Source of the DNA: an uncultured Gammaproteobacteria bacterium
Lineage (GTDB): Bacteria; Actinomycetota; Acidimicrobiia; Spongiisociales; SHLN01
Length of the DNA: 64,000 nt
NCBI GenBank assembly: GCA_964195905.1
Contig: CAXMQV010000128.1
Coordinates: 459-64,458, forward strand
Direction: 5' to 3'
Positions 2,691 to 59,480 of the stretch are shown one piece after another; the stretch's first letter is position 1, and each line of letters opens with the position of its first letter. Below the pieces are notes generated by a model, which was not told the DNA's origin, did no database searches, and saw nothing but the letters and a program-made list of their open reading frames with translations. Position numbers and translations under genes: made by a program.

Positions 2691-3938
2691 CTACGTCTCA
2701 GCCCGCACGATGGGATCCGACGGTGCGTTCTCCCGTCGCGCCAACCAGAAGAATGGAATGGCCACCACCGAGATTGCTGAGCTGACGACGTACGAGGCTC
2801 CATAGCTCCAGACGTCGGCGACTCGTCCGAGAGCAGGTTGGGCACCCACTCCCCCGGCCGAGGACATGAGGGCGTCGAACGAAAGCACGGTCGCTCGCTG
2901 GTCGGAGTCGATGAGGCCGTTCAGATAGGCCTGCCGCATCGGGAGACTCACCGAGGAGGCCAGCGACCAGAGCACGAGCAGTCCGATGGCGACCCAGAAA
3001 CTCGAGGTCAGGCCGATGGCCAGCAGCGCCAGCGTTCCGACTAATCCGGACAACACAAGCACATCGGTGCGCCTGCGGAGCAATCGTCGAACGAGGGGCA
3101 CGATGAGGCCACCGACGATCTGGGCACCGGCGACGATGGCGGCCGCCAGACCGGCGATGCCGAATGCGTTCGGGTCGCCGTACAGCTCGAGCAGGTAGGG
3201 CTGGAGTGCGTAGAACGCGTACACGCCCACTCCCCCGGTGAATGGCGCGGCCAGCATGAGCCAGCGGATGGGTGGCTTGCGCCATCCATTGTCGATCGAG
3301 GCAGTAACGATCTTCTTCATTTCCTTCATCGGGCTCGCTCCCCGGTGAGGCGTGAAGCCGATATCGCGCATGAGGAGGAAGGCGGCCGCGAACGTGACTC
3401 CAAGCAAGACCGCTCGCAGGATGTAGGGAACACCGAGATTCGTGATCTGGGCGATGAACCCACCGGCCACCGAACCGGTCAGCATGGCCACACCCATCGT
3501 GGTCTGACCTTTGGCAAACACCGTCTCGTACTCGCCGTCGAAATCCGATGCATTTAGCGCATCCACCAGCCACGCCTCGACCGCTCCCGAGAAGAAGGTG
3601 AATCCGAGACCGATCAGCACTGAAGAAAGTAGCCAGCCCCAAAACGGGGCTTCGGCGTACCACATGAACAGGTAGAGCAGGGTGGAGACGAGCAGCGTGG
3701 CGGCGCCGAGAAGGTAGGACGCCCGCCTGCCCACCGTGTCGGCGATGACGCCGGTGGGGACCTCAAAGAGCACCTGGCCTGCCGTGAAGGCGGCGTTTGC
3801 TCCAAAGGCCTGGGCGTTGTTGAGGCCGGCATCGAGGAGGAACAGGGTGTTGACGCCCCAGATGAGCGAGGCCGACAGCGTGGAGAGCAGCGTGAGCAGG
3901 AGGTAGATGCGTTGAACCCGTTGCGCTGCCTCAGTCAT
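2691..3938 (-). CDS. MFS transporter
   Basis: 415 aa, about 12 hydrophobic spans, and an MFS-like motif ..GVIADTVGRRASYLLG.. after TM2. Confidence 0.85.
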   Translation of the reverse strand: MTEAAQRVQRIYLLLTLLSTLSASLIWGVNTLFLLDAGLNNAQAFGANAAFTAGQVLFEVPTGVIADTVGRRASYLLGAATLLVSTLLYLFMWYAEAPFWGWLLSSVLIGLGFTFFSGAVEAWLVDALNASDFDGEYETVFAKGQTTMGVAMLTGSVAGGFIAQITNLGVPYILRAVLLGVTFAAAFLLMRDIGFTPHRGASPMKEMKKIVTASIDNGWRKPPIRWLMLAAPFTGGVGVYAFYALQPYLLELYGDPNAFGIAGLAAAIVAGAQIVGGLIVPLVRRLLRRRTDVLVLSGLVGTLALLAIGLTSSFWVAIGLLVLWSLASSVSLPMRQAYLNGLIDSDQRATVLSFDALMSSAGGVGAQPALGRVADVWSYGASYVVSSAISVVAIPFFWLARRENAPSDPIVRAET

Positions 3939-3951
3939 TGGAGGACCCTAG

Positions 3952-3972
3952 CCAGCTACCAGCCACCAGCTA
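3952..3972. repeat. Heptamer array CCAGCTA CCAGCCA CCAGCTA
   Basis: Read directly. Confidence 0.75.
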
Positions 3973-4115
3973 CCCGCACGGCGGGAACGGGGTTTCGCTG
4001 GGCCTGGCGCCGGCGGCGCCGGCCGTCCCTACGATTGACGTCCGGCGGTAGCATTCGGATTTCTCCGCCCGATCGCGCGCTAGACATGGCGCGGCGGAGA
4101 AATCGAGAGGAAGAA

Positions 4116-4331: not shown

Positions 4332-4366
4332 GTCACCGGTCACCGGTCACCGGTCACCGGTCACCA
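4332..4366. repeat. Heptamer array (GTCACCG)x4 plus GTCACCA
   Basis: Begins 4 nt after the csp-like stop codon. Confidence 0.95.
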
Positions 4367-9329: not shown

Positions 9330-9385
9330 GTCAACGGTCAACGGTCAACGGTGGGCGGTGGGCGGCGGGCAGTGGGCGGTCGGCT
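9330..9385. repeat. Heptamer array (GTCAACG)x3, (GTGGGCG)x2, GCGGGCA, GTGGGCG, GTCGGCT
   Basis: Eight in-phase units read directly. Confidence 0.95.
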
Positions 9386-9820: not shown

Positions 9821-9883
9821 GACAGCGTTGCTCTGGTAGCGAGCTCGCAACGCGAGCTGGGAAAGATGTTCGGGTGCGGATGG

Positions 9884-9915
9884 CGGGGAGCGGGGAGCGG
9901 GGAGCGGGGAGCGGG
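9884..9915. repeat. Heptamer array (CGGGGAG)x4
   Basis: Read directly. Lies 15 nt upstream of the amidohydrolase start. Confidence 0.95.
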
Positions 9916-11428: not shown

Positions 11429-11477
11429 GGTGACCGGTGACCGGTGACCGGTGACCGGGGACCGGGGACTGGTCGCC
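11429..11477. repeat. Heptamer array (GGTGACC)x4, GGGGACC, GGGGACT, GGTCGCC
   Basis: Seven in-phase units. Reverse complement of the GTCACCG family. Confidence 0.95.
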
Positions 11478-14862: not shown

Positions 14863-15336
14863 TCACCGGCTCCCGAATACCGGCCGTCGGTTCACCGGTC
14901 TCTGACCGGAACGGCGTCTTGGCGCGGCCCGGCCGGGCACATCGGGAAGCCCGGCGTCCGGACGGGGCCGGACCTCCCTCAGGGGAGCGTCTGAGATCGG
15001 GCCCTCGACGTCTGCGGCAGCCAGCACCCGCTCGACCGGGCCCCCGCTTCTCAGGAATTTGAGGGGCGTGGAGAAGTCGAGAGATCGATTGGACCGAACC
15101 AGCCAATCGGCGATCTCGATATCGCCATGCGTTCTCTTCATGAGGTGCACCACGGAACCCAGTTCGGGTCGCACACCGTCGCGATCGAATTGAAATGCGA
15201 AGTAGGCCTCCTGGAGCCATCTGCCCTCGACTCTGAGGAGGTCCGGTCGGTGAACGATGAGCTGCGCAGGCACCCCTGCTCGCCGGGCTGCCTGCGCTCG
15301 CGTCAGAAAGGGTCCTTTCAGGATTCGCTCGGTCAC
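14863..15336 (-). CDS. HTH-like plus DUF2384-like (Xre/MbcA/ParS antitoxin-type) protein
   Basis: N-terminal LTRAQAARRAGVPAQLI (HTH-like). Central ..DWLVRSNRSLDFSTPLKFLRSGGPVERVLAAA resembles the toxin-binding domain of ParS/MbcA antitoxins. 4-nt start/stop overlap with the upstream gene. Confidence 0.55.
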   Translation of the reverse strand: MTERILKGPFLTRAQAARRAGVPAQLIVHRPDLLRVEGRWLQEAYFAFQFDRDGVRPELGSVVHLMKRTHGDIEIADWLVRSNRSLDFSTPLKFLRSGGPVERVLAAADVEGPISDAPLREVRPRPDAGLPDVPGRAAPRRRSGQRPVNRRPVFGSR

Positions 15337-16085
15337 GCCCGGATCTCATTCCGGTGCTCGGCGGCCTGGTGTCGCAGCGTTGCCACAACAGATTCGGCAA
15401 TGGCACCAATCGGCATCCGTCCGGTATTCCAGATCGCGTCGTATCGCGTTGGATCGTCGATGTCGACCCGGAAGTGAGCTTTCAACAGGCGCGCCCGGGA
15501 CGAGTCGATTCTGCGAGCTTCGTCGCGGGCGGAGCGCTCCTCGAACCCGTAGTACTCCATGACCCTCCGGATCCGGGTTTCCTCAGGAGCGATGAGGCGA
15601 AGCGAAAGACCCTGGCCCATGTCCCTCGTGACTTCCGAGCCGGCCCGCCCGACGATGATGCTCTTGCCGATGGAAGCCACTGCTGTCACTACCTGAAATA
15701 CGTGCAGCATCAACATGTCCTGGTCGATGCTCGAGCCGAGCATCTGACGGAGGAACTCGTCGGTCCTGGTGCGGTACTCCTCGGCGACCAGCGACGCCAT
15801 CGACTTCGAGAAGGTGGGGTTCTCGGCAACGATCTCGCAGAGCCGGCGGTCGAAGACCTGCCACCCCCCGAAGACTTGCGCGTCGTCCTGGCGAGCAAAC
15901 ACCTCGAGCAGCGTCTCGGCCAGCAGGTGCCCTCCCGCCCCTGCTTGTCGCGAGATGGTGATGAACGGCCGGGCGCCTGGCTCCGAACCGTGGTCCTCTG
16001 AACGCAGCTCGGCCGCGTGAGCTGCCAGATAGCCCTCCATGGCCGTCAGCCGGTTCGTGCCGCGTGCTTTTGTGGTCTTGTCCAT
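15333..16085 (-). CDS. Cytidylate-kinase-like family protein (Cytidylate_kin2 type, degenerate P-loop)
   Basis: ..PFITISRQAGAGGHLLAETL.., ..IIVGRAGSEV.., ..LRLIAPEETRIRRVMEYYG..ARRIDSSRARLLKAHF.. fit the family pattern. Start taken at the ATG at 16085; a TTG at 16094 is possible. Confidence 0.8.
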   Translation of the reverse strand: MDKTTKARGTNRLTAMEGYLAAHAAELRSEDHGSEPGARPFITISRQAGAGGHLLAETLLEVFARQDDAQVFGGWQVFDRRLCEIVAENPTFSKSMASLVAEEYRTRTDEFLRQMLGSSIDQDMLMLHVFQVVTAVASIGKSIIVGRAGSEVTRDMGQGLSLRLIAPEETRIRRVMEYYGFEERSARDEARRIDSSRARLLKAHFRVDIDDPTRYDAIWNTGRMPIGAIAESVVATLRHQAAEHRNEIRA

Positions 16086-16559
16086 CAACCACAAGCATCG
16101 GTCTCTTGGTGCCGGATGCGCCAGGGGCAGGTGGCACCATCCGAAGGGCCGAAGCTACTTTGGTTGAAAAGCCAAAATCGTCCGAGGACCCAAGATCCCA
16201 GACCCCAGACCCCAGACCAGCGGGCCACGGCAACCCCCCGGCAACCCGAAGGCGTTGCCGGGGTCTTGGAACAGTCGGACGCGGAAAACCCCGGTTGAGC
16301 GTCGGCCGAAACCTTCGCCCCTCCGGGGCTTCCGTCCGAAGCGGCCCGAGGGCTGCTCCGATTCCTCTCCGTTTGGCCGAAGCCTCCCGGTGAGGGACCT
16401 CTCTGGTCGGCCGAAACCTTCCTTCGAGGTAGTGGCTTCGCCAGCGTCCGAGTGAGCCCGAAGGCCCTCTTGGCCGTTCCCCTTGCGGGGCGTCCGACGA
16501 AGCCGCTCCTCCGACCCTTGCGAGCCTTCGGAGCGTGTGTTGAGGTTTCCCTCAGCACT
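16086..16559 (-). ncRNA. Candidate long structured 5' leader of the cytidylate-kinase-like operon
   Basis: Lies between the predicted promoter (16566-16594) and the start codon, with no credible ORF. Minus-strand hairpins ggcUUCGgcc (16375-16384), gccUUCGggc (within 16456-16467) and ccccGCAAgggg (16479-16490). Contains a (GTCTGGG)3 array. Confidence 0.3.
16190..16217. repeat. Heptamer tandem array: ccaagat cccagac x3
   Basis: Four in-phase 7-nt units read directly from the sequence. Confidence 0.9.
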
Positions 16560-16565
16560 TGAAAG

Positions 16566-16594
16566 AATCTACAGGGCCGTCATCGTTGCGTCAA
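16566..16594 (-). promoter_or_regulatory. Putative sigma-A-type promoter TTGACG-N17-TAGATT (minus strand)
   Basis: Reverse complement of 16561-16600 reads ctgagtTTGACGcaacgatgacggccctgTAGATTctttc. It sits in an AT-rich island in otherwise GC-rich DNA. Confidence 0.5.
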
Positions 16595-16610
16595 ACTCAG
16601 GGGCTACCTA

Positions 16611-16639
16611 GTTTTCGCGCTCTAGAAGTAGTTTTCGCG
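16611..16639 (-). promoter_or_regulatory. Two direct repeats CGCGAAAAC (minus-strand reading), 20-nt spacing, 16 nt upstream of the -35
   Basis: Plus strand shows GTTTTCGCG at 16611-16619 and 16631-16639. The same motif and spacing occur at 18472-18524. Confidence 0.45.
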
Positions 16640-16703
16640 GGGACATCGGAACTCTGGACTCGATGCCGCAATCGACACCCGTCGACTCCTACTCTCAGGA
16701 CCG

Positions 16704-17591
16704 ATGGGCGATTTCTTGAGCGATCCGGAACACCAGTGGCAGGTTCGAATGCTTGCCACGCTAGCGGTCCTGATTGCCACCATCATCGTCCGGCTCTTCG
16801 TCCTGAGGATGGTGCGCCGTCGGGTCGTAGACACCGAGATCTGGTACCGCACCCAGAAGGTAACGAGCTACGCGGGTACATTCATCGTCCTCCTTGTCAC
16901 GAGCTTCGTGTGGCTCCGGGTCAGCAATGTCGGCGCTTGGATCGGCGTGGCGTCTGCCGGTATCGCAATCGCACTGGCCGACGTTCTCCGGAATTTCGTC
17001 GGTCTCAGCTACATCCTGATCCGCCGTCCCTTCAAGATCGGCGATCGGATCGAAATCGACGGCCAAGCAGGCGACGTCGTCGACGTGCGGGCGCAGCGGT
17101 TCTCGCTGCTCGAGATAAAGGGATGGGTCGACGCCGACCAGTCGACCGGCCGCATCATTCAGATCCCGAATGGTCTGCTATTCAGCAAGCCGCTCGCCAA
17201 TTACACCGAAGGCTTCCCCTACATCTGGCACGAGATCCCGATGCTCGTTACCTTTGAGTCCGACTGGAAGCGGGCCGAAGCACTGATGACCGAGGCGCTC
17301 GGCGAGCACGCTCCCAGCATGGCGTCGGAGGAGGCCCGCAAGGCCATCCGGGAGGCGGCCACCGAGTATCGGATCCGCTACACCCATCTCACGCCCACAA
17401 CGTATGTGACTGTCAAAGACAGCGGCGTGATGATCACCGGCCGCGCCATCATTCCGGTCAGGTCGCGCCGCCACGTTGACTCCACCATCTGGCGGTCGCT
17501 GTTAGAGAAGCTCGACGCCGAGCCGAGTGTGGAGCTCGCGTATCCGACGGTACGGACGTATTTGCCGGAGCTGAGGGTCACGCGACAGTAG
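16704..17591 (+). CDS. Mechanosensitive ion channel family protein (MscS-like)
   Basis: 295 aa, three N-terminal TM spans, then ..RRPFKIGDRIEIDGQAGDVVDVRAQRFSLLE..GRIIQIPNGLLFSKPLANYT.., the MscS beta-domain signature. Confidence 0.9.
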   Translation: MGDFLSDPEHQWQVRMLATLAVLIATIIVRLFVLRMVRRRVVDTEIWYRTQKVTSYAGTFIVLLVTSFVWLRVSNVGAWIGVASAGIAIALADVLRNFVGLSYILIRRPFKIGDRIEIDGQAGDVVDVRAQRFSLLEIKGWVDADQSTGRIIQIPNGLLFSKPLANYTEGFPYIWHEIPMLVTFESDWKRAEALMTEALGEHAPSMASEEARKAIREAATEYRIRYTHLTPTTYVTVKDSGVMITGRAIIPVRSRRHVDSTIWRSLLEKLDAEPSVELAYPTVRTYLPELRVTRQ

Positions 17592-17640
17592 GCATCCGGC
17601 ATCCGGCATCCGGCATCCGGCATCCGGCATCCGGCATCCG
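17592..17640. repeat. Heptamer tandem array (GCATCCG)x7
   Basis: Seven perfect units beginning one nt after the mscS stop codon. Confidence 0.95.
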
Positions 17641-18420
17641 GCAAGCATCGTTACCCGGTTACCCGAAGAAGACCACCATCGAGGCGTGTCGCGCTGGGAA
17701 GGGGTTTCTCTGGACCTGGCGCAGGCGGCGCCGGTCGTCCCACGGTCGGCTGTCCTGCGGTAGCAGTCGACTTTTCAGCCAGTGGCGCGCCGGATCCAGG
17801 GCTCGACCGAAAAGTGACAGAGGGCATCGCGCGGAAAATCCCGAGTGAGCCTCGGCCGTGACCAAAACCCTCTCGGGATGTTTCCGCTGCCGGGCGGCTC
17901 CCTTGCGGGTGCCGTGCCGGCGGTTTCCGCCCGAGGTCGGTGCCCGAAGGCCCGTGTCCCTTGCGGCGCCGAAGCGTTTTTGGCGCTTCAGCGTTCCAGC
18001 GTCGCTGGCCCGACGACCTTGCGGTCATCGAGTGCCGGTCCGAAGCCGCGCCCTTGCGGGTCTGGCCCTCGCCGACTCTCATCCTCCGCCGAAGCGGTGA
18101 ACGAGTCGTGGTCTCCCGGCGACTATCTGAGCCTTGTGAGCCCATCCAGCCGGCCCGATCGGGGCCCGGGTGGCCACTCCCCACGATCGCGAATCGTAGG
18201 GCCCGGTCCGGTTTTGACACCTTTCCAGGACTCCGGTCCGGCTTTTAGACCTTCCCAGAGATCCGGTTGGGCTTTCGCCCTTCCAGTCCAGTCGGGCTGT
18301 TACACCCTTCTGGGGTCCGGCCGGGCTTTCGCCCTTCCGGGGTTCTCACAAACCTTTCGATCTGCAAGCCTGCCGTCCACTTTCGCTTCCGGCCGGGTCG
18401 TTCCGGTTGCCCGGGCGACA
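17641..18420 (-). ncRNA. Candidate large structured non-coding RNA (no ORF, own promoter)
   Basis: Downstream of TTGACG-N17-TACATT. At least eight GC-clamped hairpins have UUCG, GCAA or GAAA loops on the minus strand only (17900-09, 17942-51, 17967-76, 18015-26, 18051-60, 18086-97, 18269-80, 18324-35). Confidence 0.3.
18203..18346. repeat. Degenerate ~30-nt tandem repeat, 5 copies (CCGGYCSGG-YTTT..CCTTYCCAG..)
   Basis: Copies at 18203-32, 18233-62, 18263-92, 18293-316 (24 nt) and 18317-46. No unique spacers lie between the copies. Confidence 0.7.
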
Positions 18421-18426
18421 AAGACA

Positions 18427-18455
18427 AATGTACGGGCGAACCTCCGCACCGTCAA
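18427..18455 (-). promoter_or_regulatory. Putative sigma-A-type promoter TTGACG-N17-TACATT (minus strand)
   Basis: Reverse complement of 18421-18460 reads ctcatTTGACGgtgcggaggttcgcccgTACATTtgtctt. Confidence 0.5.
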
Positions 18456-18471
18456 ATGAGATTGGTAGTTA

Positions 18472-18524
18472 GTTTTCGCGCCATAGGAGCATTTTTCGCG
18501 GAAGCGCCGCAGACGGTTTTCGCG
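18472..18524 (-). promoter_or_regulatory. Three direct repeats CGCGAAAA(C/A) (minus-strand reading), 20- and 24-nt spacing, 16 nt upstream of the -35
   Basis: Plus strand shows GTTTTCGCG 18472-80, TTTTTCGCG 18492-500 and GTTTTCGCG 18516-24. Confidence 0.45.
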
Positions 18525-18540
18525 GTTCGCGGAGGGGTTG

Positions 18541-18645
18541 GTTCCCCGTTCCCCGTTGCCAGGTGACAGTTGACCGTTGACCGTTGCCAGGTGACCGGTG
18601 ACAGTTGACCGGTGACAGTTGACCGGTGACAGTTGACCGTTGACC
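18541..18645. repeat. Mosaic heptamer array, 15 in-phase units (GTTCCCC, GTTGCCA, GGTGACA, GTTGACC, GGTGACC)
   Basis: Read directly. All 15 units keep a 7-nt register across 105 nt. Confidence 0.95.
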
Positions 18646-18689
18646 TCCGAATTACATTCGTGTCACTCTCGTCCCGTATAGTGCCGGAT

Positions 18690-19502
18690 ATGGATCGAGT
18701 GTCACCAAGCCGGCTAAGCGACTTCAAGCAGTGCCCCCAGCTGTTCAAGTTCCGATCGATCGATCGACTGCTCGAACCGGCCACAATCTTTCAAGCTCGC
18801 GGCACCACCGCCCACCTGGCTCTTCAGCGCCTTTACGGCCTGGACGCCACCGATCGCACGCCCGAGCGTCTCTACGACCTGTTCCGGGAAGCTTGGGCTG
18901 AGGTCCGCGACGACGAGTATCCGGACATGTTCGAGACCGTCGAGGAGGAGCGCGCCTGGGGTATCGAGAGCATGGAGCTGCTCGCCAACTACTTCGCGGT
19001 GGAGGACCCCCGGGCCATCACCCCGGTGGGGTGCGAGCTCGACTTGCTCGAGGAAGTCAACACCGTGCGGGTGCGCGGGATTCTCGATCGCATCGATGAG
19101 AACGAGAGCGGCGACCTGGTGGTCACCGACTACAAGACCGGCAAGGCTCCACCCGAGCGTTACGCACTCCCCGCCTTCTTCGCACTCAAGATCTACGCCC
19201 TGCTGACCCGCAAGCACCTCGAGCGGACTCCGGTGCAGCTCCGGTTGCTCTACCTGAACGGCCCAACGCTGTACTCCCTCGACGTCGACGAGCAGCAACT
19301 CGACGCCATGGAGCGCCAGGTGCTTGCCCTGTGGGATGCCATTCAGCGGGCCGAGCAGCGCCAGTCCTATCCCCCCCGTCAGTCGAGGCTCTGTGACTGG
19401 TGCTCGTTCCAGGAAATCTGCCCTGCTTTCGGCGGCACCGGCGAGCCGACCGCAGACATGAAGCGTCGGCCCGAGCAGGTGCCCGAGCCGACTCCGGCCT
19501 AG
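18690..19502 (+). CDS. PD-(D/E)XK nuclease, RecB/Cas4-like with Fe-S cysteine cluster
   Basis: MDRVSPSRLSDFKQCPQLFKF.. (N-terminal Cys), ..RGILDRID..LVVTDYKTGK.. (nuclease core), C-terminal CDWCSFQEICPAF (3 Cys). Start trimmed to the ATG at 18690, outside the heptamer array. Confidence 0.8.
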   Translation: MDRVSPSRLSDFKQCPQLFKFRSIDRLLEPATIFQARGTTAHLALQRLYGLDATDRTPERLYDLFREAWAEVRDDEYPDMFETVEEERAWGIESMELLANYFAVEDPRAITPVGCELDLLEEVNTVRVRGILDRIDENESGDLVVTDYKTGKAPPERYALPAFFALKIYALLTRKHLERTPVQLRLLYLNGPTLYSLDVDEQQLDAMERQVLALWDAIQRAEQRQSYPPRQSRLCDWCSFQEICPAFGGTGEPTADMKRRPEQVPEPTPA

Positions 19503-26124: not shown

Positions 26125-27951
26125 TCACCTGCCGGGCGAAGGTGAGAAATCGCCACTGACGACGTTCCAGTGGATCTGGGCGTATGGCCCGTACTCGCCG
26201 AAGTGGTTGAGGTATTGCCGATCGGCGAATCCGGTCGTGTTGGTGAAGCGGAAGAAGAACGCGCCTGGCTCGACACTTCGACCGATGGTGCCGAAGTTGC
26301 GGCGGAAGGCTCCGACCGTGTCGATGCCGTCACCCGTCCAGTCGCCCACAAACACTATGTCCCCGTGGGTTCCGTACCAGAACTGCTGATCCACCGACGC
26401 GACCGGCCCGGTGGGAGCGACGTCGTTCAGGTGAACGTGGGCAGCCGAGTAGTAGTACTGAACACCGACCGTCTCCATTCCGTCTCCATTGAAATCCCCT
26501 GAGAACGGTCGACGGCCATTGCTGAATTCGGAGCCGAACCGGTAGGTCTGTTCGGCCGCGAATGTCGCGCCGCTGGGCGGCAAGGTGTTGGATATGAAGA
26601 CCTCACCCTTTGAGAACACGCCCACGGTGTCACATCCGTCCCCATCCCAGTCCCCAGCAAGGACACCACCCCGATCCCGGCTGATCGCGCCGGGCGGGTC
26701 GGCATTGAACCCCGCAATATCGATACGGAACGAAAGCTCTCCGAAACCCGTGGTGTTCGAGTTTCGCAGGTACACGGTGTCGTTCGATTGTCGGTACACA
26801 CCCGGGGTATCGATTCCGTCGCAATCCCAATCACCCAGAAACGGTAGGTCTGCGCTGACGATGGTCCCGCCTATGCCGAAGTAGAAGGTCGTTACCCGAC
26901 CGGTGGCGTCGCGGAGATACCACTTGCCCGTGCCGGGATCCACCAGGCCAATCGGGATGGGGTTGAGCGGCTGCCAAGCCGGCTGTGAGTCCCAGGCCGG
27001 ATGATTGGTCAGGTTGACGGGATCGGTCCCATCGGGGTTGATGATCATGATCTCCGCAGGGCTGATGGCGAGGTCCGACACGGTGGTGGCAATCCGAGAC
27101 CCGTCGGGAGCGATTGCCGGATCCACCAGGTGCGATGCCCCGCCCGGGTTGGGAATCTCGACCTCGCCCGACTCAGACACCAGCAACAGATTGGCCTGTG
27201 TGTCGTTGGTGCCAACGCGGGCAACCGCCATGTAGGCGTGATCGGGTGCCCAGTCGATGCCGCCACTGTTCCACCCGCCTTCGGTGGATTGAACCGGCAC
27301 CGGCACCCCGGTCGCGGCCTCCCACCAAACGGACTCGATCGTGTACACGATGGCCGCGGATTCATCGGCGGTTGCTCCACTGAACGTCCGAACGAAGGCA
27401 ATACGGTGCCGGTGGGGCTGCGGCTGGGAGGACCAGACCGGTGATGAGTCAACAGCACCGAGGGCCCACGCTAATTCGCCCAAACCTGAGGCGGGATCCG
27501 TCAGACGAAGCCGATTGGCGCCGTCGGCGTCTATCGCGAAGATACCGCTCTCAGATGTGAACGCAATGATGCGACCGTCAGGGGACCAGGTTGGCTCCCC
27601 GTCCCTGGCAGGGTTATTGGTGAGGTTGACGAGGTTCGAGCCGTCAGCATCCATCACATAGATCTCGTCGTTTCCGTCCCGGTTCGATACGAACGTGATC
27701 CGTAACCCGTCCGGGGACCAGGCAGGAGCCCGGTCATTAGCCGGGTGATTGGTGAGGTTGACAAGGTCGGAGCCGTCGGCGCCCATGAGGTAGATCTCGT
27801 CGTTCCCGTCTCGGTCGGACACGAAGGCAATCCTGCCGTTGTCTCCCGGCACGACCGCCACGGCCACCTCCGAATCGACGACAACGACAGCCGCCACCAG
27901 CAAACAACACAACAAGACCGGGAACCAACGGGCACGTCGAACGACGGCCAT
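26125..27951 (-). CDS. Secreted protein: TolB-like PD40 beta-propeller repeats plus C-terminal GDWDGDG-type (FG-GAP-like) repeats
   Basis: Signal-like N-terminus MAVVRRARWFPVLLCCLLVAAVVV. Repeated ..GRIAFVSDRDGNDEIY.. and ..NDRAPAWSPDG... C-terminal half has 4-5 GDW(D/T)GDGxDTxG repeats. AGGAGG precedes the ATG at 27951. Confidence 0.8.
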   Translation of the reverse strand: MAVVRRARWFPVLLCCLLVAAVVVVDSEVAVAVVPGDNGRIAFVSDRDGNDEIYLMGADGSDLVNLTNHPANDRAPAWSPDGLRITFVSNRDGNDEIYVMDADGSNLVNLTNNPARDGEPTWSPDGRIIAFTSESGIFAIDADGANRLRLTDPASGLGELAWALGAVDSSPVWSSQPQPHRHRIAFVRTFSGATADESAAIVYTIESVWWEAATGVPVPVQSTEGGWNSGGIDWAPDHAYMAVARVGTNDTQANLLLVSESGEVEIPNPGGASHLVDPAIAPDGSRIATTVSDLAISPAEIMIINPDGTDPVNLTNHPAWDSQPAWQPLNPIPIGLVDPGTGKWYLRDATGRVTTFYFGIGGTIVSADLPFLGDWDCDGIDTPGVYRQSNDTVYLRNSNTTGFGELSFRIDIAGFNADPPGAISRDRGGVLAGDWDGDGCDTVGVFSKGEVFISNTLPPSGATFAAEQTYRFGSEFSNGRRPFSGDFNGDGMETVGVQYYYSAAHVHLNDVAPTGPVASVDQQFWYGTHGDIVFVGDWTGDGIDTVGAFRRNFGTIGRSVEPGAFFFRFTNTTGFADRQYLNHFGEYGPYAQIHWNVVSGDFSPSPGR

Positions 27952-28179
27952 CACGCCTCCTTTCGGAGCCACCACCAACGTAAGCCTTGTGCGCCTCCGC
28001 AATAGAGGAAAACGGCACCCCGCAATAGTCAGCACCCTGCCCTGCCCACCACAACCGATCCTCGATCTGGCGACGCCACCCGCGGCCGGTCCCCCACCAG
28101 ATCACCAAACATGGGCGATATCGCCTCAACCTGATCATGCGCGAGATCTGCACTGATACGCTCGGTGGGGATGTCTCGG

Positions 28180-39059: not shown

Positions 39060-40215
39060 GGCTCACCTCGTCCTCGACCTCCCGGAAGGCGGCCAGCAGT
39101 TGCTCGAGAGCGGGTTCCCCATGCTGCTGCTGGTAGTACTCGGCGTATATGTCCTCCCAGGCGAGGTGGCTGTATGACACCTGGTCGGTGGCTGCCCGCT
39201 CGTAGACGGCGGCCACCTTCACGAGGTGCGGGAAGACATCCCGGGCGAGGGCGTCGAGGCCGGGCTCCGGTCCATCGGTGTCGACCCGCAGATCAAGGTA
39301 GCAATCAGCCAGATCCTCGCGGTCGCCGATCTCTTCCCAGGTCCCCGAAACCTGCATGAGCCGGCGGCCCGCCGTCAGCGGGACGCTCTGCACGCCAGCA
39401 AGCTTCCCGGGCTCGGCGTCGACAATGACTACGCGTTTCTGCTCGCCCGCTTCTCCGAAGTCGAGCTCGAGCAGGGACCCGGCGTACTCGGCAGGCACGT
39501 TCGCCCCCGGAACCGGCTGGGGGGCATGGATGTGACCCATCGCCACATAACTCAGAGACGGTGGGATGGCCCCCTCCCCAACCGCGTAGGCCTCCCCCAT
39601 ATGGAGCTCCCGCTCACCCCGCGGTGCTCCGTGCCCGCCCACCCGGGCGCCGGTGATCATGAAGTGAGCAACGAGCAGCGAGACGGCATCGGTCCCGGCC
39701 TCCTCGATGAGATATTCGGAGTAGGCCTCGGTCAGGCGCCGAACCCGGTCGGCATATTGGCCATACCAGCGGTCGGTGTCTGCCATGAAGTCGACAACCC
39801 GGCCCTCGCGTAGGAAGGGAAGGCACGCCACGAGCGCGTTGCCGGCACCGGTTTCCAGCCGCAGCACCCCTCCATCGGCCGGGGACTTGATGGCTCCGAC
39901 GAGATGAATCCCCCACCCGGCGAGAAACGGCGCCAGGGCCTCGAACAGGTCGCTCGAATCGTGATTGCCTGCCACCACGACGACGGGACGGGCCCCGCCG
40001 CCGCTGAGTCGCACCAGTCCGGCCAGTCCGACCTGGAGCGCCTCCATGGGTGGCACCGGCCGGTCGAAGAGGTCGCCGGAGTGGACAACCAGATCGACAG
40101 CTTGGGCGTCGGCAATCGAAGCAACCTCTTCAATCGCCTGGCGCGTCTCCTCGATCCGGTCGTAACGGCCGAGGCGCTTGCCGACGTGCCAGTCGGAGGT
40201 GTGGAGGATCCGCAC
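39046..40215 (-). CDS. sbcD: SbcD/Mre11-like nuclease
   Basis: MRILHTSDWHVGKRL.., ..VVHSGDLFD.., ..VVAGNHDS.., ..GHIH.. are calcineurin-like phosphoesterase motifs of SbcD. Confidence 0.9.
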   Translation of the reverse strand: MRILHTSDWHVGKRLGRYDRIEETRQAIEEVASIADAQAVDLVVHSGDLFDRPVPPMEALQVGLAGLVRLSGGGARPVVVVAGNHDSSDLFEALAPFLAGWGIHLVGAIKSPADGGVLRLETGAGNALVACLPFLREGRVVDFMADTDRWYGQYADRVRRLTEAYSEYLIEEAGTDAVSLLVAHFMITGARVGGHGAPRGERELHMGEAYAVGEGAIPPSLSYVAMGHIHAPQPVPGANVPAEYAGSLLELDFGEAGEQKRVVIVDAEPGKLAGVQSVPLTAGRRLMQVSGTWEEIGDREDLADCYLDLRVDTDGPEPGLDALARDVFPHLVKVAAVYERAATDQVSYSHLAWEDIYAEYYQQQHGEPALEQLLAAFREVEDEVSHAAP

Positions 40216-59405: not shown

Positions 59406-59410
59406 ATCCG

Positions 59411-59480
59411 GTCACCGGTCACCGGTCACCAGTCACCAGTCACCAGTCACCTGTCATCGGCATCCGGCATCAGGCATCCG
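59411..59480. repeat. Heptamer array, 10 units grading GTCACCG to GTCACCA to GTCACCT to GTCATCG to GCATCCG
   Basis: Read directly. Begins 6 nt after the M23 gene stop. Confidence 0.95.

Follow-up and report, generated by a model that had tools for sequence, protein, structure and literature searches.

A structured small RNA with its own promoter, and a longer paralog, predicted beside an MscS-type channel gene in Acidimicrobiia

This study concerns a tract on the minus strand of a 64-kb stretch of Acidimicrobiia DNA (assembly GCA_964195905.1, contig CAXMQV010000128.1, positions 459 to 64,458), which is called here the window and to which all coordinates refer. The tract lies between a cytidylate-kinase-like gene and a divergent gene for an MscS-type mechanosensitive channel. 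Comparison with related genomes makes it probable, at roughly 80%, that the tract is a gene in its own right, with its own promoter and terminator-like hairpin, whose product is a structured non-coding RNA of ~283 nt, designated RNA A; a longer paralog, RNA B, is predicted on the other side of the channel gene. The first-pass annotation had interpreted positions 16086-16594 as a ~465-nt leader of the kinase-like operon. This interpretation did not hold, since the predicted RNA ends at ~16280, 195 nt short of the kinase-like start codon. The comparisons give good support to the view that the two RNAs represent an undescribed family, so far sampled only in one Acidimicrobiia clade, while their general kind is familiar.

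The genomes closest to the window are metagenome-assembled genomes of Acidimicrobiia, and the carriers of RNA A form a group of mostly marine or sediment members of this class. Homologous loci from metagenomes and genomes are labelled L0xx. A metagenome scan with the promoter pattern gave 14 loci, and two further RNA-carrying loci were reached through MscS homologs. The A-type homologs compared below are L002, L010/12/13, L017, L019, L020 and L022.

Promoter, boundaries and structure of RNA A

The predicted transcription unit consists of the following elements, where helices are numbered in the order of the consensus fold and distances are counted from the putative start:
16631-16639, minus strand: distal upstream box CGCGAAAAC, at ~-80 to -72, an exact match
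16609-16619, minus strand: proximal upstream box CGCGAAAACTA, at ~-60 to -50
16589-16594, minus strand: -35 hexamer TTGACG, of which TTGAC is conserved in all homologs
16566-16571, minus strand: -10 hexamer TAGATT after a 17-nt spacer, TAnATT-like in most homologs
16280-16562, minus strand: RNA A, structured small RNA of ~283 nt (covariance-model match at 16280-16560, 313 bits)
16537-16558, minus strand: P1, the 5' hairpin, with an invariant GAAA loop and 3 of 9 pairs changed on both sides (helix 1)
16506-16533, minus strand: P2, a hairpin with a GCAA loop (helices 2-3)
16434-16504, minus strand: branched domain of ~70 nt with the closing stem GGCUUCGUCGG / CUGGCGAAGCC
16397-16430, minus strand: hairpin module, copy 1, CCUC...GGU-UUCG-GCC...GAGG with a purine-rich internal loop (helix 8, 2 compensatory pairs)
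16364-16395, minus strand: hairpin module, copy 2, missing in L019, L020 and L022; L010 has one extra
16337-16360, minus strand: P6, hairpin CGGAGCAGCC-CUCG-GGCCGCUUCG (helix 12, 2 compensatory pairs)
16281-16336, minus strand: 3' terminator-like hairpin, -35 kcal/mol, with an inner module-like hairpin and a U-tract at 16285-16288; common to RNA B

The minus-strand promoter noticed at first sight, TTGACG (16594-16589), 17 nt and TAGATT (16571-16566), was found again in our analysis. A promoter scan of the region 15900-18800 registered two sites only, this one and a twin at 18455-18427, against 0.2 expected. Two direct CGCGAAAAC boxes spaced by 20 bp are placed 5' of this sigma-70-type promoter. 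The distal one was outside the pattern used for the metagenome scan, and CGCGAAAA is kept at its position in 14 of the 15 distinct promoters. The composite of the proximal box and the -35 element, GCGCGAAAACTA..TA.C.......TTTGACG, is present twice in the 64-kb window and never in shuffled sequences. Promoter and boxes recur 5' of every homolog. The boxes could serve as an activator site or as a phased A-tract/UP-like element; a literature search for the CGCGAAAAC box returned unrelated papers only, mostly eukaryotic E2F-site work and primer sequences. A viral origin was also considered and ruled out by the result of the same promoter pattern in viral contigs, where it had 0 matches.

Both borders of the element are visible as limits of conservation, which in nine related loci begins at the promoter and ends right after the 3' hairpin and UUUU. 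Nucleotide identity drops sharply directly after ...CCGGGGUUUUCCGCG in all homologs, and the sequence of L002 is near-identical to the window from the boxes through ...GGCCGACGCTCACCCGGGGTTTTTCGCG and unalignable beyond. Homologs of RNA A are 245-315 nt long and score 192-312 bits with the covariance model. The 3' hairpin comprises 57 nt, is GC-rich and is followed by UUUU; the GGAA/UUCC base of its stem carries a compensatory change from GC to AU in L002. Another altered stem is that of P2, where CUCCG/CGGAG is replaced in L022 by CUCUUC/GAAGAG.

The branched domain is the most conserved part of the molecule. Its closing stem, in which one UA pair is changed to CG (helix 4), encloses a CCCC-GCAA-GGGG hairpin together with GGCC/UUCG hairpins, and the whole domain, including the loops, is near-invariant in seven genomes. 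It is specific to RNA A and deleted in B-type RNAs. The most variable element is a 32-nt module with the consensus CCUC..GGY-UUCG-GCC..GAGG and a symmetric, purine-rich internal loop; RNA A has from 1 to 3 copies of it, which appear in alignments as clean indels. The unpaired linkers ACACAC and AAUCGGAG are conserved as well. All three tetraloop hairpins listed in the first-pass annotation, namely ggcUUCGgcc GGCUUCGGCC at 16375-84, GGGCCUUCGGGC at 16456-67 and CCCCGCAAGGGG at 16479-90, are in place. The internal duplication of 105 nt proposed there required revision: the exact 16-mer GTCGGCCGAAACCTTC does occur at 16301 and 16406, but there is no tandem 105-nt repeat. What looked like one is the ~32-nt module, present twice in the RNA body, whose apical hairpin is found once more inside the terminator hairpin.

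Selection at the RNA level is indicated by several estimates. The minimum free energy of RNA A from the window is -148.8 kcal/mol (z = -4.9 vs dinucleotide shuffles). Seven distinct A-type RNAs were aligned with MAFFT; the RNAalifold consensus of this alignment has 95 pairs, and 96.4% of the corresponding cells are pairable. Twelve of these 95 pairs show compensatory changes on both sides, compared with 3.8 +/- 1.5 after shuffling of the 3' partners (0 of 500 shuffles reached 12) and 0-3 after slides of 1-3 columns. In a model-fitted alignment of 18 distinct A- and B-type sequences 95.9% of cells are paired vs 76% in the shuffled control, and 58 of 94 pairs covary, the alignment itself being biased toward the model. 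The strand is fixed by many conserved G-U pairs and by the model score, which is ~15 bits on the opposite strand vs 313 bits on the proper one. Finally, conservation of RNA A exceeds that of the flanking proteins: the window and L002, at 75% identity between their kinase-like proteins, share 59 consecutive nt without a single change. Fold energy, compensatory pairs and strand-specific G-U pairs thus agree with the early suggestion that the transcript is a hairpin-rich non-coding RNA, which is still to be read as a prediction.

An alternative explanation is that there is no RNA gene at all, and that the hairpins are incidental to a coding sequence or to a DNA-level repeat or mobile remnant. This could be suggested by an open reading frame of 157 codons, which overlies the tract (16085-16558, minus strand), by the repeats in the region and by the upstream boxes CGCGAAAAC, which come close to being the reverse complement of the 3' end GTTTTCCGCG. 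The spacer had been described as devoid of credible reading frames, and with a small correction this stands: the 157-aa frame exists, yet in L022 all three sense frames contain stops. The frame is not kept in homologs, and no codon periodicity is seen in the variable columns (21/21/18 by codon position). Reading frames over RNA A and RNA B had no Pfam match, and a protein-database search with translated RNA A found nothing similar. The protein-coding reading was ruled out on these grounds. A mobile element with terminal inverted repeats, formed by the boxes and GTTTTCCGCG, was also tried and dropped in view of the fixed chromosomal synteny, the lack of mobility genes nearby and the single copy of each RNA, A and B, in 64 kb. 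The motif GTTTTCCGCG is explained by its pairing with the upstream CGGAA, so there is no need for mobile-element repeats. As both compensatory changes and G-U pairs are strand-specific, we regard an explanation without an RNA gene as extremely improbable.

Automatic gene calls in this family deserve a separate remark. In L022 a public call of 196 aa (3463-4053) without a Pfam match is placed over RNA A. In L023 a call of 462 aa (1061-2449), also without a Pfam match, adjoins and slightly enters the predicted 3' hairpin of RNA B and is mostly outside the covariance-model match. The call in L022, as well as frames of 121 to 189 aa that overlie RNA B in the window, are probably spurious and originate from high-GC non-coding RNA.

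Independent gene or leader of the kinase-like operon

The region between RNA A and the gene downstream of it in the window includes the following:
15333-16085, minus strand: cytidylate-kinase-like gene (PF13189, Pfam E = 3e-26), downstream of RNA A in some genomes only
16086-16163, minus strand: block of ~80 nt adjoining the kinase-like start codon, shared by the window, L002 and L017 and weakly recognizable in L003
16187-16268, minus strand: non-conserved spacer with a GC hairpin (16231-16268) and heptamers (16187-16218), not part of RNA A

If the whole of 16086-16594 were a 5' leader of ~465 nt, it would regulate the kinase-like operon in cis, and the hairpin with the U-tract would be a conditional attenuator. 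The promoter of the RNA is indeed directed at the kinase-like gene, a consensus scan found no promoter of this gene between 16280 and 16086, the same order of RNA and kinase-like gene is repeated in L002 and L017, and with so short a U-tract some read-through is plausible. The distribution of the two elements decides against it. RNA A is followed by the kinase-like gene and its 157-aa partner in just three loci: the window, L002 and L017. This cassette is absent from L010/12/13, L019 and L022, representing three lineages, where the gene of an M3 peptidase converges on the 3' end of the RNA from a distance of 44-174 nt; RNA and terminator hairpin are fully conserved there, although nothing co-oriented follows. 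Conservation upstream of more distant kinase-like orthologs was not found either: the loci of orthologs L003-L007 (44-62% identity) gave no covariance-model match anywhere, and in L003 a peptidase gene is only ~90 nt upstream of the kinase-like gene. The RNA is thus kept without the cassette and kinase-like orthologs occur without the RNA, and the leader reading fails. In addition, the 195 nt up to the start codon are composed of non-conserved repeats and a separately conserved proximal block, and RNA B, which has the same 3' hairpin, is followed by no co-oriented gene, its 3' end facing the end of the MscS gene. The contrast that had been drawn between one gene-fused and one free-standing locus therefore disappears, since both come out as free-standing genes. 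All this makes a leader distinctly improbable, and the kinase-like cassette is, as far as the genome comparison goes, a lineage-specific neighbour and not the cis target of RNA A. A type III toxin-antitoxin system, in which a repeat RNA and a terminator precede the toxin gene, was considered too and dropped, as the downstream gene is not conserved.

Two further features assigned to the leader belong to the spacer. The 8-bp stem ccggcaac/gttgccgg (16231-45 with 16254-68) and the heptamer run (GTCTGGG)n, which occupies 16187-16218 with period 7 and 4.6 copies, are both present in the window, but they lie outside the RNA and are unconserved; at this position relatives have other heptamers or hairpins. 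The proximal block has the pattern ..GTGCCACCTGCCCCTGG..GAGACCGATG.., or ..CCAAAGT..CTTCGGATGGTGCCACCTGCCCCTGG..GAGACCGATG.., and holds an inverted repeat GGTGCC...GGCACC. Its faint counterpart is found in L003, which is without RNA A. Probably the block is the kinase-like gene's own 5' region, and it may contain a promoter of this gene or an element of its 5' untranslated region.

Some points weigh against the independent gene for RNA A and have to be set beside the evidence given above. Both ends are predicted, the 5' one being derived from the -10 hexamer and the 3' one from the stop of conservation. The U-run consists of 4 U only, and a simple terminator scan did not flag this site. Covariation suggests that the U-run is paired with an upstream GGAA; by the compensatory change in GGAA/UUCC the RNA should continue for a few nucleotides beyond the U-run, so that its 3' end could be a product of processing and not of classical intrinsic termination. 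The scan registered no separate promoter for the kinase-like gene, and in the window genome RNA polymerase may read through from RNA A into this gene, although the conservation of the element has another cause. Sampling is also limited, because there are only ~9 distinct A-type sequences, all fairly close to one another.

The paralogous RNA B and the genomic environment

The features considered in this section are:
17830-18425, minus strand: RNA B, a paralog of ~590 nt with A-like 3' 200 nt and a 5' extension of tandem GNRA-hairpin modules
18427-18524, minus strand: promoter of RNA B with three CGCGAAAA(C) boxes, TTGACG (18455-18450) and TACATT (18432-18427)
16704-17591, plus strand: gene for an MscS-type mechanosensitive channel (Pfam), divergent from RNA A in every A-type locus
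L008 337-1044, L015 348-1151 and L014 6-1284: tandem A-like/B-like pairs, separated by repeats and a second promoter only

The first-pass annotation regarded the two tracts as diverged paralogs, and this view gained support. The covariance model of RNA A gives a full-length match to 17830-18033 (minus strand) with 29.9 bits and E ~1e-9 to 1e-11, the E-values of this model being rough, and the corresponding part of every B-type homolog scores 24-34 bits. A BLAST alignment of A with B has two matching segments: one is the promoter, and the other is the 57-nt 3' hairpin, in which CCCCGG/CCGGGG of one RNA is compensated as CCCGAG/CUCGGG in the other; similarity thus goes beyond hairpin words. The exact blocks that had been thought to link RNA A with the tract at 17.6-18.4 kb are present, but these are words of tetraloop hairpins at non-homologous positions. 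The two promoters, on the contrary, truly have a common organization: hexamers TTGACG-17-TAnATT plus upstream CGCGAAAAC boxes. From this same box architecture we infer that A and B may be co-regulated.

The remaining part of RNA B is its 5' extension. Tandem repeats at 18203-18343 consist of units of 27-30 nt, pairs of which make ~54 nt. In this extension hairpins capped with GAAA alternate with those capped with UGUAACAG or GUCAAAAC (GNRA vs UGUMAAAR), and they are joined via CCGGA/CUGGA linkers. Comparison with L002 reveals compensatory changes in RNA B too, for instance from GGGC/GCCC to GGAC/GUCC, and among relatives its length varies from ~300 to 650 nt. Downstream of its 3' hairpin, the region 17644-17829 (minus strand), which reaches to the (GGCATCC)n array, retains part of its sequence in L002 (..CCCTCTGTCACTT.TCGG.CGAG....GAAGTCGACTG..) and contains complementary arms similar to TCGACTTTTC / GAAAAGTCGA; it could be a second hairpin or a terminator common to the convergent MscS gene. 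A partial match to the A model at 40040-40098 (plus strand, 14 bits, E ~0.003), which covers only the hairpin-module part and is inside a coding region, is probably due to chance.

The pair of RNAs is conserved in one Acidimicrobiia clade. Synteny established by tblastn with the proteins of the window places MscS divergently from RNA A in 9 distinct loci, and the RNA family is lost from loci where identity of the MscS neighbour is <=61%. In the more distant loci (L008/L015, L014) the A-like RNA and its B-like partner are arranged in tandem with no gene between them, and the second promoter of L008 has the boxes CGCGAAAAC / GCGCGAAAACG and GGTTGAC. These tandem pairs indicate that the conserved unit is the pair of RNAs, which seems to be ancestral, and that linkage to MscS may reflect local history only. 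The motif TACTCT is kept 8 nt 5' of the ATG of MscS (16690-16706, plus strand), also in L002. Its closeness to the start codon suggests that the MscS mRNA is leaderless, and in this case the CGCGAAAAC boxes of RNA A would stand at ~-55 to -85 of the MscS start as well. They could therefore act on both divergent genes.

Otherwise the environment is that of an ordinary chromosome, and Pfam annotation found no mobility genes among the neighbours. Past RNA B there are genes for a PD-(D/E)XK nuclease and for an AdnAB-like helicase-nuclease pair; on the opposite flank there are an M3 peptidase, a bPH_2/SHOCT protein and an amidohydrolase. A 132-nt tandem repeat of 1.8 copies with 79% identity was noticed at 27575-27815, in the gene of a PD40/WD40-like beta-propeller protein (26125-28101, minus strand), and presumably corresponds to a repeated propeller blade.

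Nine short heptamer tandem arrays were registered in 64 kb:
1294-1327, 4332-4365, 9349-9384, 9883-9915, 11429-11473, 16187-16218, 17591-17643, 18553-18645 and 59408-59460: heptamer arrays
Those that were compared with the reading-frame calls lie between genes. The unit differs in each (CCCGCTG, GTCACCG, GGTGACC, GACCCCA, GGCATCC, CCGTTGA, CCGGTCA and others), and relatives have unrelated units in the same intergenic positions (L002 9880-9925, L017 ~2610-2720, and L008/L015 downstream of the A-like RNA). Cyanobacteria carry heptameric STRR repeats, which these arrays resemble.

Possible function and comparison with known systems

Acidimicrobiia are Actinobacteria that abound in marine and sediment habitats and are mostly uncultured. 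We know of no characterised regulatory RNAs in this class, and to our knowledge it has, like most Actinobacteria, few of the classical partners of small RNAs, such as Hfq. A search of the literature on small RNAs of Acidimicrobiia found nothing relevant. Rfam 15 at gathering thresholds gave 0 matches in the 64-kb window and 13 homologous loci, and with permissive E-values of up to 10 the sole match in 15900-18800 was a 16-bit one to Transposase-2 inside RNA B, consistent with chance. ARAGORN predicted 0 tRNA or tmRNA genes in the window. The A/B pair, which is large, well bounded and supported by covariation, and combines an unusual shared promoter signature with variable numbers of modules, may thus be a starting point for studying post-transcriptional or RNA-protein regulation in Acidimicrobiia. 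It is also a trap for annotation, as gene callers put probably spurious reading frames over both RNAs, and RNA A can be mistaken for an operon leader.

As to the function, we tentatively suggest that RNA A is a modular protein-binding RNA, a decoy or scaffold, co-regulated with its paralog; this is possible but far from assured. The shared upstream boxes would co-regulate the two RNAs, both would work in trans as protein-binding decoys or scaffolds, the repeated hairpin modules would each offer a binding site, and specific recognition would fall to the invariant branched domain of A. Protein binding is preferred to short-seed antisense action because of the variable modules, the purine-rich internal loops, a mild enrichment in YGGA words and the existence of two paralogs. 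UCGGA is found in RNA A 5 times vs 0.8 expected, and CUGGA and CCGGA are commoner than expected in RNA B; these words sit in stems, internal loops and linkers. This proposal has its own weak sides: it is drawn from architecture and analogy only, and the YGGA enrichment is partly a side effect of internal repeats and UUCG-G loops. The constant divergent pairing with MscS weakly suggests a link to osmotic or membrane stress.

A trans-acting small RNA which pairs with target mRNAs through a conserved single-stranded stretch, and needs its hairpins for stability, would equally have a free-standing gene with promoter and terminator. Conserved unpaired linkers (ACACAC and AAUCGGAG) are available for this, and the stress-related gene MscS is divergent, as in some known pairs of a small RNA and a gene. 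However, the molecule of 245-315 nt is almost wholly paired (95 pairs in ~283 nt), its conservation peaks in the branched structured domain including the loops and not in one short seed, the number of modules varies and the linkers are short. Base pairing as the principal mechanism therefore appears rather unlikely.

In an extended version of the protein-binding proposal, RNA A and RNA B would form a clade-specific two-RNA regulatory system, switched on by a DNA-binding factor at the phased CGCGAAAAC boxes and operating through modular protein decoys or scaffolds. This version is still more doubtful than the simple one. The dedicated factor would possibly turn on the divergent MscS as well, osmotic stress being one conceivable occasion, and protein-binding capacity would be set by how many modules an RNA has, a number that varies among close relatives. 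In a stronger variant, the branched domain, invariant in A, would sense a specific ligand or protein.

Among known RNAs, 6S is a rod-like molecule with paired ends and a large central bubble, while Ms1 is an abundant RNA-polymerase-binding RNA of Actinobacteria with a length of ~230-300 nt. RNA A and/or B might be their counterpart in this clade. RNA A belongs to a similar size class (~280 nt), is encoded by a stand-alone gene with a strong-looking promoter, as expected for an abundant RNA, and shares the phylum with Ms1. The differences are substantial: predicted and consensus folds are made up of 9 local hairpins, just 2% of pairs reach across more than half of the molecule, and there is no end-closed rod with a bubble. 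Rfam, which includes 6S models, gave none of them on the RNA A tract at E = 10. The string "Acidimicrobi" is absent from the main text of the Ms1 survey (PMC9130861), so an RNA-polymerase-binding RNA could be undescribed in this class. Blastn comparison with the S. coelicolor Ms1 verified by rapid amplification of cDNA ends (PMC9130861, supplement) had its lowest E at 0.53, over 17-23 nt, this being a single Ms1 sequence. Ms1 genes neighbour a HAD-IB hydrolase / phosphoserine phosphatase gene and an oxidoreductase gene (PMC9130861), and this synteny is absent at the RNA A locus. A role as counterpart of 6S or Ms1 is thus improbable.

The genomic arrangement of RNA A itself finds other parallels. 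In the micF-ompC region a small RNA is divergent from a membrane/osmotic-stress gene, with repeated regulator-like boxes between them. RNA A is likewise divergent from MscS, with repeated boxes in the shared intergenic region; there is no homology, however, and in L008 and L014 the A/B tandem does without an intervening MscS. GlmY/GlmZ and OmrA/OmrB are homologous RNAs, encoded near each other, with near-identical promoters that carry upstream regulator sites, similar 3' ends and divergent middles. RNAs A and B exceed these pairs considerably in size and degree of structure and have no sequence or model similarity to them, yet they resemble them in being close together and in having near-identical promoters, similar 3' ends and differing middles.

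A further analogy in general design is that with the protein-sequestering RNAs CsrB/CsrC and RsmX/RsmY/RsmZ, which are free-standing RNAs with shared conserved upstream sequence, 3' hairpins of Rho-independent type, two or more paralogs of unequal length per genome and variable numbers of repeated hairpin modules. Exposed GGA motifs in hairpin loops, by which Csr/Rsm RNAs are recognised, were not found in RNA A, whose loops are UUCG, GCAA or GAAA and not GGA; YGGA words of A and B lie in stems, internal loops and linkers, no Rfam match links the families, and the large invariant branched domain of RNA A has no counterpart in Csr/Rsm RNAs. In organization there is a likeness: A and B are predicted to be free-standing, and they have shared upstream boxes, 3' hairpins, unequal lengths of the paralogs and modules in variable number.

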